Assembly (NCBI GenBank): GCA_038119905.1 | Contig: JAYOKQ010000007.1 | Location: 250 to 64,249, forward strand | DNA from: Gemmatimonadota bacterium | GTDB lineage: Bacteria > Latescibacterota > UBA2968 > UBA8231 | DNA: 64,000 nt | Direction of reading: 5' to 3' | Shown: positions 25,771 through 55,629 of the stretch, in pieces | Numbering within the stretch: the stretch's first letter is position 1 | Layout: each line of letters starts with the position of its first letter | Translations under genes and position numbers: made by a program | The notes under the pieces: model-generated | Database searches by the model: none | The model's input: the letters and a program-made list of their open reading frames with translations, nothing else | Told to the model about the DNA's origin: nothing

Positions 25771-26838
25771 CTATTTCTGCTGGCCTGCGCGGTCGATTTC
25801 TTCAATCTGGTGCGTGGCGTAATCCTTAAAGCGGCTATCCTGCTGTGCACGGGCGTAGTAGGTGCGTGCTTCGCGCATCTCGCCCAGTTTGAAATGCGCG
25901 TCGCCCAAGAGGTTCTGTGCTGCCGCCAAATTCTTGTCGTAGCGGACGGCCGACTGTCCGGCCTCGACGGCTTTGCGATAGCTGCCCATGCCGTAGTGGG
26001 CTTCCCCAAGGCGGAAGTGTACTTCGGCGTTTTTCTTGTCCAATTCGGCCGCGCGCTGAAGTGGTTCAATGGCCTCGTGCTGACGGCCGAGTTGGTTGAG
26101 TGCCGTCCCTAAAAAGAGATGACCTTCGGCATACTTGGAATCTGCTTTTAACGCCGTCTGCATGAGGCCGACGATGCCCTCGACATCCTGCGTGGCAAAC
26201 TTAACGCGCGCTAGCCCACCGTAGGCGGCCATGTACGAAGCATCGGCCTCGATGGCTTTTTGGTAGGTGGCCGATGCCGGGCCATAGTCGCGTCGTCGCC
26301 GCTGTATATCGGCTAGCTGATAGTAGGCCTTGGCATAGCTGGGGTCGGCGCCAACGGCTTTTGCAAAGGCTTCTTGTGCCTTTTCCTCGTTGCGGTTGCC
26401 GTTGTAGGACAGGCCCAGTGCATAGAGCATCTGCGCGTTGTTGGGTGCGAGTTCCAATGCCTGTTCAAAGCGCACAATCGCTTCGCTGTATTTGCGCTGT
26501 TGCAGGCTAGTTACAGCAGACTTGTTATACAGCTTGCCGAGGGCAGCTACACATTTCTCCGGGCGGACGCCCAACTCGCGTGCTCTCTCGTAAGAGCTGA
26601 TAGCCTGCTCATACTCGTTGAGGACGCCGTAGGCCTGGGCAAGTAGGTAGTGTGCTTCGCCATAGTTGGGATCTACAGCGGTAGCCTTCTCGAATTCTAT
26701 CGCGGCGTTGCGGTAGTTGCGTTTCGTTATTAAGTCGTAGCCGGTTCGGTAGTGGTTTTCGGCTTCTTCGTTGACCTGGGCTTGAGCCTGTGGGGCCAAG
26801 AGAAGCATAAGACACAGAGGGAGGAAGAAGCGTAGCAT
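25771..26838 (-). CDS. secreted TPR-repeat protein
   Basis: Signal peptide MLRFFLPLCLMLLLAPQAQA, then about eight repeats with an A..Y..A......Y..A pattern. Confidence 0.8.
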   Translation of the reverse strand: MLRFFLPLCLMLLLAPQAQAQVNEEAENHYRTGYDLITKRNYRNAAIEFEKATAVDPNYGEAHYLLAQAYGVLNEYEQAISSYERARELGVRPEKCVAALGKLYNKSAVTSLQQRKYSEAIVRFEQALELAPNNAQMLYALGLSYNGNRNEEKAQEAFAKAVGADPSYAKAYYQLADIQRRRRDYGPASATYQKAIEADASYMAAYGGLARVKFATQDVEGIVGLMQTALKADSKYAEGHLFLGTALNQLGRQHEAIEPLQRAAELDKKNAEVHFRLGEAHYGMGSYRKAVEAGQSAVRYDKNLAAAQNLLGDAHFKLGEMREARTYYARAQQDSRFKDYATHQIEEIDRAGQQK

Positions 26839-26946
26839 GCGATTGTTCTCCGAATGGGCAAGCGGGTAGAAAATGGATGTGTCTGCGACTAGTTAAACCT
26901 GCAATCGACGGAAATGCACAAGCCCCGTCCTGAGGATAGTATGGGC

Positions 26947-27177
26947 CTAACGATTGTCAATCGCGGACTTGATTTCCGCGAAGTCGGGATAGCGTTTTTC
27001 GGCGAGCTTAGAGAAGATGAGCACGCCGTCGACCGCAACCTCAAAACGTCCTCCGTCTGAAGGGACGAGCGTGAACTCAGCTACTTCCTTTTTGTACTCT
27101 TTTAGAATTAGTTCCGCCAAACTGACGGCCTTTGATTCGTAGCCTCAAGCAGAGCAGTAGGTCAGATGCAGTTTCAT
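26947..27177 (-). CDS. SelW/SelT/SelH (Rdx) family selenoprotein; in-frame TGA at 27145..27147 read as selenocysteine
   Basis: Manual translation gives MKLHLTYCSA-U-GYESKAVSLAELILKEYKKEVAEFTLVPSDGGRFEVAVDGVLIFSKLAEKRYPDFAEIKSAIDNR. The CxxU sits where the Rdx CxxC/CxxU redox motif sits. GGxFEV..DG.LI.SK matches the family core. AGGAG lies 9 nt upstream of the ATG. Confidence 0.8.
27105..27138 (-). promoter_or_regulatory. putative bacterial SECIS hairpin
   Basis: On the mRNA, +7..+40 after the UGA. Lower stem GAAU/AUUC, upper stem CCGUC/GGCGG (one G-U pair), apical loop AGUUU containing GU, about 21 nt from the UGA. Confidence 0.45.
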
Positions 27178-27216
27178 ACGATGTTCTCCTGTACTCATCA
27201 TGATCGAGAAAGAAGT

Positions 27217-27245
27217 ATAATAAAAGGGGCTCGGACTATTGTCAA
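27217..27245 (-). promoter_or_regulatory. sigma70-like promoter TTGACA-17-TATTAT for the selenoprotein gene
   Basis: Read on the minus strand: TTGACA (27245..27240), 17-nt spacer, TATTAT (27222..27217). The leader is about 33 nt. Confidence 0.6.
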
Positions 27246-37058: not shown

Positions 37059-37308
37059 TACACTCCGCCTAAATATAGGTGTGGTATGTCTATACCTGTA
37101 CTTGTCTATTAGTGCAATTTAAAAAGTATTGTGGCTGGATTATTTTTTGAAGAGAGAGAAAGGAGGGCGGCGGCGCAAAGAAGTTGCTTTACTATTTGAT
37201 TTAACTTGATTTAGGATATGATGAAGAGCTTAGCTTGAGTCCTTGCTAAGCGCAAATTTTTTCATCGTTTTGTCATTCTTAATACAGGGTAACTTCCCTG
37301 AGGAGGAA

Positions 37309-40300
37309 ATGATGAAGGGTAGCAAATGCTTACTACTTCTCGCTGCATTTTTGGTGGGATTTGGCCTGACGAAGACGGCAGACGCACAGTCTGCCCTCAT
37401 TGAGTCGGTCACAATCGTCTCCCCAGATAGCGGCACGGTTCGAGGAATCGACTCCACTTTTGTGGTGACTGCTACGGTCCTCGACTACACGGCTTCGGAC
37501 AGTCTCGAAGTTGTCATGTATCTGATCGCAGGTGGCGTCGATACGGCGGGTGTCGCTGACAATACTGGAACAGATCTTAGCACGCGTTTCACTGCCATCT
37601 CTGGTAAGACGATGGCGCCTGCCAGCAATGTTTCGGTGAACGCGAAAAGGCGTGGCACCGCGACTGGTCGCGACACGCTGGCATCTGGTAACGCTGATTC
37701 TGTCGTTGTCAGCACGGGAACCGACCGGGTCACGTTCACTTGGTATGGTAGGATCGACAGCACCTCTGGTACCGTGAATAACATCAGGGCGGCCGCTGTC
37801 GCGTTGGATTATAACACGAGCGCAGCGAACTCGTCTACCGCGGTAAAGGTTTCTGCTGCCACAAAGAGCTTCGATATTGATGCTGACCGTCCAGCCAATC
37901 CGGCGGGTCTCGTTTCTATAAATGCCGGCGCATTGCAGACCGCCACGATCGGTGGTGTTTCCAAGAGCATCGCCGGTATTGGTGACACGATTAACGTTCG
38001 GACCAAGCTGGGAGAAACCACTGTTGGTGTCCTTCAGGGTGATTCGCTCTCCGTCAGGTTGAACATCTTCGGCAAGAATTTTGCCGTGGATAAGACTTCT
38101 CGTTCTTCCGATACGCTGAAGACGCTGATCACCCTCGCTGAAGGCACGTTTGGCGAATTAGATGGTAGCGCCAATACGACGGCTGCGGTGTACTTGGTCG
38201 ACAAGGCCGGTAACCTGTCGGGTGGATTGGATACGGCCCCCCAGGGTGCCACGAAGGCTACGACCTTCATATTCGACACCAAGGCTCCTGACCTAACTGA
38301 GGCTACGGGTGACACCATTCTACCGGTTTCGAATGATACCATCACTGACGGCACGATTAACGGTGATGGTGTAGCTAAAGACTTAAATCCCATCACCTAT
38401 GGTCTGGGTGAAGCGTTGGATTCACTGTTCATCGCCTTCACAGGTCCGAGCACGTTGAATGTCAAGATTGGTAGTGGCGCAACGAAAAATGACGGTGCTA
38501 GCTCGCCTCTTGCCAAAACGACTAAAAGAGTGCTTGACTTGAGCTCCAAGGCCAATGGTGCTAAGGATTCGACGGCTACCGTCAGAGGCACTGATGGCTC
38601 TTCGGTTGCTACCGTCCAGGGTGCTTTGGCAGATTCTGTGCTAGCAACGGGCGTTTACTCCATCACTTTCAAGGGCAAGGACTTGGCCGGCAACGTCGGT
38701 CCCGTTTTGACCCGTGCAAACGTCTACGTTGATGTGGATGACGTCAAGTTTGACCGTCTGTTCCCGACGAAAGCTTCTTTCGGCGCAGTGGGCGCTTCTC
38801 GTGTTGACACGCTAGACGAGGAAACGGCTAAGTTGGTTTTCAAACTTTCTGAGCCCGCCGATAGTGTGCTGATCACTTACAGAGGAATCGCTGGTCCGGA
38901 TGAGAACAAGTCGCGCACGCGTCGTCTGTCGGGTTCGCAGTTGACGAATACGGCTAGCGAACAGATCGTAGCGATTGATTCGTTGGTACATGCATCCAAG
39001 TACGAACTGACGGTGTTGGCTCGTGACTTGGCCGGCAACTTCTCTCGCACGAGAAAAGACACGTTCTTCTACGACACCTCGTTTGTCGTTCCCGTGCTGA
39101 AGCGCTTTGTCGTCACTGCAAGCCAGCGCGGTCCGGGTAGCCCGGTTAATGCTGGTGCTAGTGTTACGGTCACGCTCAAGGCTGATGCCACCACGGACGG
39201 CACGCGTGATGCTGTGACGTACAAGCGTCCGGCGATCTTGAAGGTTGCCAACAAGAACGGCGGTGTTAAGGTCGAAGGTAACGGTGTAACGAAGCTCGAT
39301 GATTCCCGCTGGCAGTTGAACGACCTTGACTGGGTGACTGGTGTTCGCACGGTAACCGTCACGGACACCACTTCCGTGGACGAGTTGACGATTTCGATCG
39401 TTGATTCGACTTCTGGTGGTGGTCCCTACACGGGTGCATTGGACTCCGTGATTGTGATCCAGCCTGATGTCTATAGCAAGCTTGTTGCTACGGCTCCGGC
39501 GGTGGTTGGTGTTGGTCAGGACTTCAATATCTCTGTGTCCAAGCAGGATAAATTCGGCAACGTTCGCGTCGCTGATAGTGGTGATGCCATTTCTTCTGAT
39601 CATGACGGTCTGGATGTCGCCATTGGCGGCGACGCCATCATTCAGAAGGGTCTTGACACGGTTGTCGCGAGAATCAGCCGTGCTCGCGATGCTTGGATCT
39701 CTCTGACGGTCGCTGGTCTTTCTGACACCGTGATGGTTACGGCGGCTCCTGGTGGAGCTCCGTTGGATGGTCCTGATCAGTTGGTCGGCGAAGACTACAT
39801 GGGCGCTGATGGTATGGGCGACCAGGGTGGCTTCGTCATGATGACGTGGGATCTGTCCGACGATCATGGCTCGGTTGATGCTTATCGCATCTACCGTCAG
39901 ATTCAGGTGACGGCCGACCTCGATTCGACCGGTGCTGTCGTCATGTTGGCCGAGCCCCAAGCTGCTTGGGTGCCGTGGGCCAAGGTGGACGCTGTTCCGG
40001 GTGAAGGTGTTGGTCGTGCGATCGTAGCGACCCTCGACAATGTGGCCACGTATTGGGCTATCGCAGCCGAGCGTGGAAACCAGTCGACGGACGCCGTGAT
40101 CAACAGCAAGGCCGTTAGCACCGAAGCGATGGACGCCTACGCCGCTATGGCGCAGACGATCCAGCAGAGCCAGCAGGTTGCCGCTATGGGCGATCAGCCG
40201 GTTTTTGCCTCGCTGCTGCCGGAAGCTCTTTCGTTCGCCCAGCAGGGTGTTGCTCCTCGTCTGAAGAGTGTGGACGAAGGCGTAATGCGTTCGGCTATGG

Positions 40301-41643
40301 CTGAGACGAAGGTTGCTGTTCGTGCTGTAGACAACATTGCTCCGCTGGCCGTGCCTTACCTGCGTGTCCTTGATACGCCGGGAGATGCGGGTAGCAGCAT
40401 CACGCTGACCTGGACCAAGTCCGAAGATGATCGCATGCTGGCGCGTAGCGCTTCGAATGCGACCTCGCTCGGTTCGGTCTCTGATTTGGTCGCTGGTGTT
40501 AAGGGCTACAACATTTACCGTAAAGTAGGCGCCACGGGTGAATACGCTCTGGTCGGTAAAGCTTCGTCCGGTTCGACCTCGTTTGTCGATCAGACGGCGC
40601 TGAACGGCGTTCGTTACACCTACTCGGTGGCTCCGTATGACGAAGACAACGTGACGAAGTCTGATGTGGAGCGGACGGCTATGGCCATCCGTAACACGGT
40701 TGTCGACAAAAACGGCAAGGCGGTCTACGGCCTCTTCGGCGCAGACAACCAGGTCGGTTTTGACGACTTCTTCATCTTCGCTGACAACTTCGGTTTGACG
40801 GCGGCTGATGAGGCTTTCGAGCCGGCTTTCGATCTGGCGTCCAGCGCTGGTCTGCCGAGAGTCGATTTCGATGACTTCTTCGTCTTCGCTGACAACTTTG
40901 GCCGTGGTATCGAAGCCGCCGGTAAGGTGGTTCCGATGCAGGCTGGTCTCAACGCCGATGCGCGCCTCTATCTTGAGGCTTCCGCTGAACTGCCCCGCGT
41001 GGGTGAGGAAGTGGCCATTGACGTCGACTTGGCCGACTACGTGCAGTTGAAGGGTTACGGTCTGTCGGTTGTTTACGATGCCGACAAACTGGAGTATGTC
41101 CGCACGGTAACGACGAACTCGCTGCTGGGTGAGGGTGAGTTGGCCACGCCGCGCGCCATTACGCAGACGGAAGGTCAAGTTGACATCGCCGCCTATGGTG
41201 AGACCGTTTCGGAAGGCGCTCTTGGTATGAGCGTTATCTTCCGCACCAAGTCGGAGATCGAAAACACCTACGTCGAGGTGACGGACAGCCAGGTGCGTGA
41301 CGGTGATTTCGCTGTCAACACCGTGGCCTTGCCGGCGCCTGTGCAGATCCAGACGCGTCCGGAAGCGTTCGCCTTGGCGAACAACTATCCGAACCCGTTC
41401 AACCCTGCCACGACCATCAAGTATGCCTTGCCGGAAGCTTCTCAGGTGCGTCTGGAGGTCTTCAACGTAGTGGGTCAGGTTGTTAGCACCCTCGTTGATA
41501 ACCACCAGAATGCGGGCCGCTATGTGGTCCAGTGGGATGCGACCAACGATCAGGGACACAGCTTGTCTTCGGGTATTTACTTCTACCGCCTACAGGCCGG
41601 TGGTGAGTTCCTCGAAGTCAAGAAGATGTTGCTGCTCAAGTAA
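37309..41643 (+). CDS. giant secreted surface protein: Ig/FN3-like repeats, degenerate dockerin-like duplicate, cohesin-like module, T9SS-type C-terminal sorting domain
   Basis: GAGGAGG RBS, then MMKGSKCLLLLAAFLVGFGLTKTADAQ signal peptide. FN3 ITLTWTKSEDD..YNIYRK..YTYSVAPYD. Duplicate FDDFFxFADNFG. Cohesin-like GEEVAIDVDLADYVQLKGYGLSVVYDADKLEYV. C-terminus NYPNPFNPATTIKYALP...SGIYFYRLQAG..KKMLLLK. Confidence 0.85.
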   Translation: MMKGSKCLLLLAAFLVGFGLTKTADAQSALIESVTIVSPDSGTVRGIDSTFVVTATVLDYTASDSLEVVMYLIAGGVDTAGVADNTGTDLSTRFTAISGKTMAPASNVSVNAKRRGTATGRDTLASGNADSVVVSTGTDRVTFTWYGRIDSTSGTVNNIRAAAVALDYNTSAANSSTAVKVSAATKSFDIDADRPANPAGLVSINAGALQTATIGGVSKSIAGIGDTINVRTKLGETTVGVLQGDSLSVRLNIFGKNFAVDKTSRSSDTLKTLITLAEGTFGELDGSANTTAAVYLVDKAGNLSGGLDTAPQGATKATTFIFDTKAPDLTEATGDTILPVSNDTITDGTINGDGVAKDLNPITYGLGEALDSLFIAFTGPSTLNVKIGSGATKNDGASSPLAKTTKRVLDLSSKANGAKDSTATVRGTDGSSVATVQGALADSVLATGVYSITFKGKDLAGNVGPVLTRANVYVDVDDVKFDRLFPTKASFGAVGASRVDTLDEETAKLVFKLSEPADSVLITYRGIAGPDENKSRTRRLSGSQLTNTASEQIVAIDSLVHASKYELTVLARDLAGNFSRTRKDTFFYDTSFVVPVLKRFVVTASQRGPGSPVNAGASVTVTLKADATTDGTRDAVTYKRPAILKVANKNGGVKVEGNGVTKLDDSRWQLNDLDWVTGVRTVTVTDTTSVDELTISIVDSTSGGGPYTGALDSVIVIQPDVYSKLVATAPAVVGVGQDFNISVSKQDKFGNVRVADSGDAISSDHDGLDVAIGGDAIIQKGLDTVVARISRARDAWISLTVAGLSDTVMVTAAPGGAPLDGPDQLVGEDYMGADGMGDQGGFVMMTWDLSDDHGSVDAYRIYRQIQVTADLDSTGAVVMLAEPQAAWVPWAKVDAVPGEGVGRAIVATLDNVATYWAIAAERGNQSTDAVINSKAVSTEAMDAYAAMAQTIQQSQQVAAMGDQPVFASLLPEALSFAQQGVAPRLKSVDEGVMRSAMAETKVAVRAVDNIAPLAVPYLRVLDTPGDAGSSITLTWTKSEDDRMLARSASNATSLGSVSDLVAGVKGYNIYRKVGATGEYALVGKASSGSTSFVDQTALNGVRYTYSVAPYDEDNVTKSDVERTAMAIRNTVVDKNGKAVYGLFGADNQVGFDDFFIFADNFGLTAADEAFEPAFDLASSAGLPRVDFDDFFVFADNFGRGIEAAGKVVPMQAGLNADARLYLEASAELPRVGEEVAIDVDLADYVQLKGYGLSVVYDADKLEYVRTVTTNSLLGEGELATPRAITQTEGQVDIAAYGETVSEGALGMSVIFRTKSEIENTYVEVTDSQVRDGDFAVNTVALPAPVQIQTRPEAFALANNYPNPFNPATTIKYALPEASQVRLEVFNVVGQVVSTLVDNHQNAGRYVVQWDATNDQGHSLSSGIYFYRLQAGGEFLEVKKMLLLK

Positions 41644-43422: not shown

Positions 43423-43448
43423 CCTCCTCAACTGAGGAGAAAGAAGTT

Positions 43449-43694
43449 TTGAAAGTAAAACTGTTGTTTTTTGCTTCATGTAGAGACATAGTCGGAGTCA
43501 AAGAGACGGATTTCGAGTTAGAAGCTAGCGCGACGCTTGGTGATTTAAAGTATTCACTACGTTCGACGTATCCCCAATTAGCAACGCGCGAGAAGACGCT
43601 CTCGTTTGCGGTTAATGCAGAATATGCTGATGACTCAGTGAAACTCTCTGAGGGCGATGAGATTGCCCTCATTCCTCCGGTAAGTGGGGGGTAA
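43449..43694 (+). CDS. moaD: molybdopterin synthase sulfur-carrier subunit (MoaD/ThiS fold)
   Basis: 81 aa ending in DEIALIPPVSGG (C-terminal Gly-Gly). TTG start behind AGGAGAAAG. Confidence 0.75.
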   Translation: MKVKLLFFASCRDIVGVKETDFELEASATLGDLKYSLRSTYPQLATREKTLSFAVNAEYADDSVKLSEGDEIALIPPVSGG

Positions 43695-54539: not shown

Positions 54540-55629
54540 ATGCCTACGATAGAAGAAACACTGCGCGAATGCACGCAACGCTTGGATCGGTTGGGAGGCT
54601 ATCTTTGACATAGATAGCAAAAAGTCACAGCTAGCCGCGCTAGAAGAAGAGATGGCCGGTGCGGATTTCTGGAACGACCGCAAAAAAGCCGAACAGACCT
54701 CGCGGCAGGCACGCGTGTTAAAAGACGGCATCGCTTCTTGGGAGGGATTGCAGAAGCAACTGCAGGATCTATCTGAGCTGCAGGAGATGGCCAGCGAAGA
54801 GGGGGATACAGATACTCTCAGCGAGATTGAGAGCGACTCTGAGCGGCTAGTAGAAGCCGTGGAGGACCTTGAGTTTCGCACCATGTTAGACGGTGACGAC
54901 GATTCTAAGAACGCCATTTTGGTTATTCACTCGGGAGCGGGTGGCACGGAAGCAGCCGATTGGGCTGAGATGCTGATGCGCATGTATACGCGTTGGACAG
55001 AACGCAATGACATGGAGAGCAGCATCATGGATATGCAGCCGGGAGAAGAGGCCGGTGTCAAAGGCGTGACGATTGAAGTAAAAGGCGATTTTGCCTACGG
55101 CTATTTGAAAGCCGAAGCCGGCGTGCATCGTCTGGTGCGCATCTCTCCGTTTGATTCGAGCAGTCGCCGACACACGTCGTTTGCTTCTGTTTTTGTCTAT
55201 CCGGAAGTAGACGATGATATAGAAGTCGATCTCAGGGACGAAGACCTAAAAATAGAGGTCTATCGAGCGGGTGGCGCGGGCGGTCAGCACGTTAACAAAA
55301 CGTCTTCGGCTGTGCGCATCACGCACTTGCCGACCAATATTGTCGTGCAGTGTCAAAACGAGCGCTCGCAGCTAAAAAACAAGGCGACGGCGCTCAAGGT
55401 GTTGGCCGCACGCGTCTACCAGCATTTCAAAGACGAAGAGGACAAAAAACTGCAGGAAGTTGAGAGCTCAAAAAAGAGCATCGACTTCGGCAGCCAAATT
55501 CGCTCGTACGTGTTTCATCCCTACAACCTAGTCAAAGACCATCGCACTAATCACGAGACGGGCAACGTGCAGGCCGTGATGGACGGCGATATTGATGCCT
55601 TTATAAAATCGTTTCTGACGCAGGAATAG
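54540..55629 (+). CDS. prfB: peptide chain release factor 2, requires programmed +1 frameshift at CTT TGA C (54603..54609)
   Basis: Frame 0: MPTIEETLRECTQRLDRLGGYL then TGA. The +1 frame continues DIDSKKSQLAALEEEMAGADFWND. Internal SD GGGAGG lies 4 nt before CTT. SPF and GGQ motifs are present. Confidence 0.95.

Follow-up and report, generated by a model that had tools for sequence, protein, structure and literature searches.

A mis-annotated SelW-like gene in a Gemmatimonadota-labelled genome, with an in-frame UGA that almost certainly codes for selenocysteine

SelW-like proteins with a CxxU motif are the most abundant family of prokaryotic selenoproteins in the Sargasso Sea, where 48 genes were found (PMC1088965), and they again form the most abundant family in the GOS data, where 427 members are Sec forms and 56 are Cys forms (PMC2398784). 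In organisms that use Sec, few or no Cys homologs of these proteins were noted (PMC1794560). Other relatives are known as solved structures. The bacterial Cys-type Rdx proteins Atu0228 (2FA8), SAV_2001 (3DEX), 2P0G and 2OBK have chains of 103-108 aa with a CxxC motif (…YCTQCNW…) and involve no recoding, while mammalian SelW (2NPB) and the eukaryotic proteins SelT, SelH, SelV and MIEN1 (2LJK) belong to the same Rdx fold family. The eukaryotic genes have a SECIS element in the 3'-UTR that works with SBP2 and eEFSec. In the Escherichia coli genes fdhF and fdnG, the SECIS hairpin lies immediately 3' of the UGA and offers SelB a G-containing apical loop, in competition with RF2. The published model of the bacterial SECIS (PMC13188914, Fig. 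2) has an apical loop of 3-9 nt with a G at one of its first two positions, an upper stem of 4-16 bp, a distance of 16-37 nt from the UGA to the apical loop, and a minimum free energy (MFE) of -7.5 kcal/mol or lower.

The locus described here lies in a 64-kb stretch of DNA, all of which we analysed and which we call the window. It resembles the Sargasso and GOS SelW-like genes in its family profile, its N-terminal CxxU, its small size, its SECIS hairpin within the coding sequence with a G in a small apical loop, and the excess of Sec over Cys forms. Nothing fundamental sets it apart from them; what is seen here is a conserved position, hisD-hisG...Rdx-TPR-RdgB, in MAGs labelled Gemmatimonadota or Latescibacterota. 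Metagenome runs supplied the closest contigs, one of them with the label marine metagenome. With the Cys-type Rdx proteins the gene shares homology over residues 2-74 and a redox motif in the same column, but those proteins have CxxC, are about 25-30 residues longer and are made without recoding. Like SelW, the product has its CxxU motif after strand beta-1, although its sequence similarity to the eukaryotic members is distant, and the element that SelB would read is located within the coding sequence, directly past the UGA, rather than in a 3'-UTR. As in fdhF and fdnG, the hairpin stands immediately 3' of the UGA with a G in the apical loop; in contrast to those elements, to which it has no sequence similarity, its stem of just 6 bp bears a 3-nt loop (in the alternative form, 5 bp and 5 nt), and it has no conserved lower helix and no match in Rfam.

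The locus (26947..27177, minus strand) is almost certainly a real gene for a small SelW-like redox protein in which an in-frame UGA codes for selenocysteine. Direct translation of the minus strand from the ATG at 27177..27175 to the stop codon TAG at 26949..26947 gives 76 codons and a single in-frame TGA, at codon 11 (27145..27147); the product reads MKLHLTYCSA, then the UGA-encoded residue, then GYESKAVSLAELILKEYKKEVAEFTLVPSDGGRFEVAVDGVLIFSKLAEKRYPDFAEIKSAIDNR. Sequence and translation match exactly the reading frame that an earlier note on this DNA had proposed, and those of its suggested checks that were run all favoured its reading. The UGA is predicted to specify U11 of the redox motif C8-S-A-U11, with Cys8 (TGC, 27154..27156, minus strand) as the putative resolving partner of Sec11. 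A mechanical list of open reading frames gives only a 57-aa ORF from a TTG codon (26947..27120) at this place, which is why no full gene is listed there. Very probably the locus is a genuine gene that is expressed and yields a SelW-like selenoprotein of 76 residues with the Rdx fold; what we infer is the insertion of Sec in this organism itself, together with the redox chemistry.

An independent check on the reading frame is membership in a protein family. With U written as C, the translation matches Pfam PF10262 (Rdx) at E=1.5e-20, scoring 73.6 bits against a cutoff of 22.6 and aligning residues 3-75 with positions 2-74 of the 74-position profile. It also matches the NCBIfam model TIGR02174 (CXXU_selWTH) over its full length, at 64.5 bits against a cutoff of 34.2. 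The protein is thus a full-length member of the Rdx/SelW-T-H family, as the profile check suggested in the earlier note was meant to establish. It scores 77.1 bits with NF041051 (SelTWH_Campy), under the 88-bit cutoff of that equivalog model; that is, it is related to the Campylobacter-type SelT/W/H (seleno)protein equivalog but is not a member.

For comparison with solved proteins, we built a profile from the clade to which the gene belongs and matched it to Rdx structures in the PDB. The profile aligns over residues 2-74 with the bacterial Cys-type proteins 2FA8, 3DEX, 2P0G and 2OBK at E-values from 2.6e-16 (2FA8, the best match) to 3e-12, and with mammalian SelW (2NPB) at E=6e-6. The CxxC of 2FA8 and 3DEX falls exactly on C8-x-x-U11, so that the UGA aligns with the second Cys of the solved Cys-type homologs, in accord with the claim that it occupies the second redox position of a CxxU motif. 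C8-S-A-U11 stands directly after the first beta-strand, where the redox motif CxxC/CxxU of this family is placed. From homology to the solved Rdx structures, the protein would be expected to adopt a thioredoxin-like beta-alpha-beta-beta-beta-alpha fold.

We then consider how the UGA is conserved. A genome scan that used one genome per GTDB species returned 341 relatives, and the best 80 of these 341, at 44-80% identity, were examined. The depositors label them Gemmatimonadota, Latescibacterota, Acidobacteriota/Terriglobia, Planctomycetota, Chloroflexota, Eisenbacteria and Sumerlaeota; these phylum labels are the depositors' own and are inconsistent among near-identical loci. TGA occupies the Sec column in 80/80 of these best genome loci and in all 22 of the metagenome loci whose DNA we inspected. 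A relative with a Cys codon was sought in order to contrast the hairpins of Sec and Cys forms, but none occurs among the best 80 of the 341 genome loci, and the sole Cys forms that we met are the distant PDB homologs. The presence of TGA in 80/80 of the best 80 of 341 loci agrees with the published scarcity of Cys homologs (PMC1794560). Alignment of homologs, which had been proposed as a way to see whether Cys or Sec occupies this column, therefore gives Cys in the solved Cys-type homologs and TGA in all 102 related loci.

The codons ahead of the TGA are conserved as protein, and they bear a coding signature. Among 89 distinct homolog sequences, Cys8 is invariant (89/89) while its wobble base varies between C and T, and the Tyr is kept in 87 of the 89. 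The hydrophobic codons upstream of the TGA have T at codon position 2 in 99-100% of these homologs, with variable wobble bases. In the 22 metagenome loci, the same segment, hydrophobic-x-hydrophobic-x-Y-C-x-x, precedes the TGA. The earlier note had asked whether the 10 codons before the TGA are conserved, and they are.

The second line of evidence is an RNA hairpin of the bacterial SECIS type at 27114..27128 (minus strand), with a 6-bp stem, CCGUCA/UGGCGG, and the apical loop GUU at 27122..27120. It starts 16 nt past the UGA and covers nt 20-34 counted from the U of the UGA; 22 nt (27144..27123) separate the UGA from the loop, and this spacing is free of gaps in all 80 aligned sequences. We used that gap-free alignment of 80 distinct sequences for a covariation test. 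Standard pairs are found in 94.8% of cells; shifting the 3' partner by 1-3 columns lowers this to 20-45%. Cells in which both partners have changed number 21, compared with 3.9 in shuffled alignments, and the covariation score is 0.317 versus 0.186; 0/500 shuffles reach the observed value on either measure. The pair 21-33, which joins two wobble positions, occurs as C-G in 57 sequences, G-C in 12 and U-A in 3, and the pair 23-31 is formed in 100% of sequences, as U-G, U-A or C-G. The five codons that make up the hairpin have wobble conservation of 0.71-1.0, against 0.36-0.69 at the other sense codons, and RNAalifold recovers the three core pairs unaided. The first base of the loop (G26) is G in 89/89 sequences, although the loops themselves vary (GUU, GUC, GCC, GUG, GGC and others). 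Chance is far from accounting for the feature, since the TGA column and the hairpin are both found again in every relative that we examined.

Set against the published model, the hairpin has a loop of 3 nt (GUU) on a 6-bp stem, or of 5 nt (AGUUU) on 5 bp if the A-U pair is opened, a G at the first loop position, and a spacing of 22 nt, all within the model's ranges. The MFE of the UGA plus 45 nt is -9.0 kcal/mol, below the limit of -7.5, and that of 61 nt is -9.8; the isolated 19-nt core, at -7.2 kcal/mol (z=-2.58), is a borderline case just short of the limit. Folding energy is subject to another reservation: the minimum-free-energy structure is indeed the hairpin at 27105..27138, but shuffled sequences fold as well as the 48- and 61-nt regions do (z of -0.04 and -0.49), so that the folding energy of the 48-61 nt region alone is no evidence for a SECIS. 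We therefore relied on covariation instead of energy. In Rfam, the whole window has no match at the gathering score, and 27040..27200 has none even with E relaxed to 10.

These results retain one part of the structure first proposed and discard another. The earlier note had described a two-tier hairpin at 27105..27138 with the apical loop AGUUU, whose GU is typical of bacterial SECIS loops. The upper tier (27128..27114) is conserved, covaries and fits the bacterial SECIS model, with the GU in its loop; the bases given for the loop are right, but a better description is a GUU loop that an A-U pair closes. No conservation in register is seen for the lower tier, which we rejected as a conserved element: its outer helix is paired in 45% of cells, its inner two pairs form in only 6 and 13 of 80 sequences, and individual homologs form lower stems in differing registers. 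In the folding check suggested for this region, the hairpin is indeed the MFE fold, but the whole is no more stable than shuffles.

A codon that is read through need not be read as selenocysteine. The UGA might be decoded as Trp, Gly or Cys, through a reassigned code or through near-cognate read-through that does not depend on a SECIS, and two database entries (P0002, P0004) do show W at this position, while the window shows no Sec machinery. However, TGA ends 18/51 long ORFs in the window, and the window encodes RF2, with its SPF motif and a CTT-TGA-C frameshift site that itself depends on UGA. The code is therefore standard, and we reject a reassigned code. Because UGA is used as a stop and RF2 is present with its frameshift site, UGA is a real, RF2-read stop here, and the UGA of the Rdx gene is a case of site-specific recoding. 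The entries with W come from contigs of 575-2156 nt in which the codon is TGA, and since TGA stands in that column in the DNA of all 22 metagenome loci, we regard them as artefacts of gene calling. Plain read-through would also leave unexplained a covarying hairpin at the SECIS distance, as well as the tRNA-Sec, selB and selA genes that adjoin the gene in relatives. Taken together, this makes insertion of a standard amino acid highly improbable.

The window itself contains no tRNA genes by a tRNA scan, and hence no tRNA-Sec; nor did its 64 kb yield selA, selB or selD when 48 of its ORFs were scanned with Pfam and NCBIfam and when the SelA and SelB of one relative (L067) served as tblastn queries. 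Among the single-TGA read-through frames of the gaps between ORFs, there was no credible second selenoprotein gene in the window. A sel cluster normally occurs once per genome. In 7 of the best 80 loci, tRNA-Sec, selB and selA adjoin the ortholog, in two differing arrangements. In L048, L054, L067, L068 and L069, the ortholog is followed after 70-400 bp by a tRNA-Sec (anticodon TCA) and then by selB and selA. The L067 proteins were identified by Pfam (SelB by its SelB-wing and beta-barrel domains, SelA at E=7e-144), and the selB and selA of the other four by tblastn, at 89-94% identity. The two Planctomycetota MAGs, L092 and L095, have all four genes on one strand, in the order Rdx-selB-selA-tRNA-Sec. 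The arrangement is thus convergent in the clade labelled Gemmatimonadaceae or Latescibacterota and co-directional in the Planctomycetota MAGs. The cluster with the ortholog lies at about 10.0-14.1 kb in L048, L054, L067 and L069, at 5.0-8.6 kb in L068, and at 9.4-15.2 kb in L092 and L095. It is from these relatives, in which the ortholog stands beside the Sec machinery, that we infer Sec decoding by the genome studied here.

That two independent sel arrangements occur beside the gene hints at a functional tie between the SelW-like selenoprotein and the Sec machinery. One could go further and suppose that the protein is part of the selenium-utilisation system, for example a factor for selenium handling or Sec recycling or a sensor of Sec-insertion capacity, rather than a generic redox protein. 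The sel adjacency in two arrangements, the perfect promoter described below and the lack of Cys forms among the best 80 loci point that way, and we offer the idea as a long shot. The near-invariance of the SECIS in at least six phyla could also conceivably mean that a Sec cassette containing the SelW-like gene has spread horizontally.

As a separate observation, the phylum labels given by depositors are inconsistent. Near-identical Rdx, SelA and SelB proteins (89-94% identity) are labelled Gemmatimonadaceae in some loci and Latescibacterota in others (L048, L054, L067-L069), and one MAG labelled Planctomycetota (L027) shows synteny of the Gemmatimonadota type with 68-80% protein identity.

Signals for expression are found ahead of the ATG. 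The Shine-Dalgarno sequence AGGAG lies at 27186..27190 (minus strand), 8 nt upstream of the start codon; the earlier note had named it. A sigma-70-type promoter, TTGACA-17-TATTAT, spans 27217..27245 (minus strand), with the -35 element at 27245..27240 and the -10 element at 27222..27217. The promoter, which the earlier note had also named, matches 11/12 positions. The region has 2 promoter-like sites where 0.5 would be expected. All eight syntenic relatives (L013, L017, L023-L028) have a perfect 12/12 promoter, TTGACA-17-TATAAT, upstream of the same ATG within diverged flanks, and an SD-like motif at the corresponding place. The conservation of a perfect promoter in relatives suggests that transcription of the small Rdx gene may be strong and constitutive.

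These signals bear on a further alternative, in which the locus holds two units: a 10-codon leader peptide that ends at the UGA, and an independent 57-residue protein that starts at TTG 27120. A 57-aa product is what the mechanical ORF list contains and what public gene calls report (P0001, P0003, P0005-P0008). That TTG, however, lies within the hairpin and lacks a Shine-Dalgarno sequence, and an in-frame start with an SD-like motif no more than 20 codons after the UGA exists in only 4/89 homologs. The earlier note had named an independent start of the downstream part as a point against its own reading; the part does not start independently, as the equivalent 'start' codon is CTG or GCG, neither of them a start, in 31/89 homologs. 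The Rdx profile and the PDB homologs require residues 2-11, which supply strand beta-1 and the CxxC/U motif, and in all syntenic relatives the promoter and Shine-Dalgarno sequence serve the counterpart of ATG 27177. We consider two separate units extremely improbable. The weakest explanation, that a Cys-type Rdx gene has become a pseudogene by a nonsense mutation or appears broken through a sequencing error, needs just one base change from TGC or TGT to TGA, but the conservation of the UGA and of the codons upstream rules it out for all practical purposes: TGA is kept in 102/102 related loci (the best 80 of 341 genome loci and 22 metagenome loci) from independent assemblies and several phyla, purifying selection is seen on the codons on both sides of it, and no relative with a Cys codon occurs among the best 80 of 341.

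If the gene encodes a selenoprotein, as we believe, its expression would proceed as follows. Transcription would begin from the strong sigma-70 promoter at 27245..27217, and translation would initiate at ATG 27177 behind AGGAG, bringing the ribosome to the UGA at codon 11. There SelB, with GTP and Sec-tRNA(Sec), would bind the hairpin at 27128..27114, outcompete RF2 and insert selenocysteine, after which translation would run on to the TAG at 26947. In the loop after strand beta-1, Cys8 and Sec11 would be predicted to cycle between the selenolate/thiol and selenenylsulfide forms, and the product would probably act as a small cytoplasmic thiol/selenol oxidoreductase.

We examined how the ortholog group is represented in public protein collections, and found it in wrong forms only (P0001-P0011; L013-L018). 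A protein search returns mostly 57-aa calls, together with two 'full-length' entries in which W stands in place of Sec. The wrong forms are of several types: 57-aa truncations whose first codon is the Leu codon within the SECIS hairpin, calls of 76-80 aa with W, and a 67-aa NCBI entry, 'Rdx family protein', devoid of the CxxU segment.

The genes around the locus are conserved. The order hisD-hisG-HEAT-BamB-like, divergent from Rdx-TPR-RdgB-creatininase-ABC, is shared with the Gemmatimonadota-labelled MAGs JAYPJE01 and JAYOYH01 at 77-97% protein identity (55% for the BamB-like protein) and is recognisable out to genomes labelled Latescibacterota; an identical RdgB protein is present in GCA_038128425.1. 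From this conserved synteny it follows that the Rdx gene is a vertically inherited ortholog.

Downstream of the gene, we noticed a second promoter-like site, TTGACA-16-TATCCT (10/12), at 26933..26960 on the minus strand. The site extends over the 3' end of the Rdx gene, stop codon included, and lies upstream of the TPR gene, which starts at 26838. The TPR gene may thus have a promoter of its own and need not be co-transcribed with Rdx.

The gene is, then, a mis-annotated new member of a well-known and abundant bacterial selenoprotein family, and it would not surprise a specialist. Our understanding of selenoproteins is unchanged by it, CxxU SelW-like proteins having been known since 2005 as the top marine prokaryotic family. 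Its value lies in annotation: standard gene callers miss the gene, shorten it to 57 residues or put W in place of Sec, and these errors stand in the public databases for the whole ortholog group. Recognition of the gene also marks this lineage of Gemmatimonadota-labelled MAGs as a probable user of selenocysteine, and other genes split at TGA are therefore to be expected elsewhere in the genome. The bacterial neighbourhoods, that is, the sel operon and the conserved neighbours TPR and RdgB, are weak hints toward the function of SelW-type proteins.

Several other features of the window deserve mention. The RF2 gene, prfB (54540..55629, plus strand), has a programmed +1 frameshift of the classic kind; it is the window's second case of recoding, split wrongly by a plain ORF track. 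Its ORF0 starts at ATG 54540, the frameshift site CTT-TGA-C is at 54603..54609 behind the SD-like GGGAGG at 54593..54598, and the main frame runs to 55629; the gene is represented in the ORF list by its 325-aa downstream part alone. A 1466-aa ORF at 37243..41643 (plus strand) has a single Pfam match, the C-terminal FlgD Ig-like domain at residues 1391-1452. The right end of the window is poor in ORFs and proves to be a long gene that runs off the window. Finally, an unlisted small ORF at about 43446..43694 (plus strand), in a 739-nt gap between larger ORFs, ends in ...IALIPPVSGG followed by a stop codon; it looks like a sulfur-carrier protein of the MoaD/ThiS type with a C-terminal Gly-Gly.
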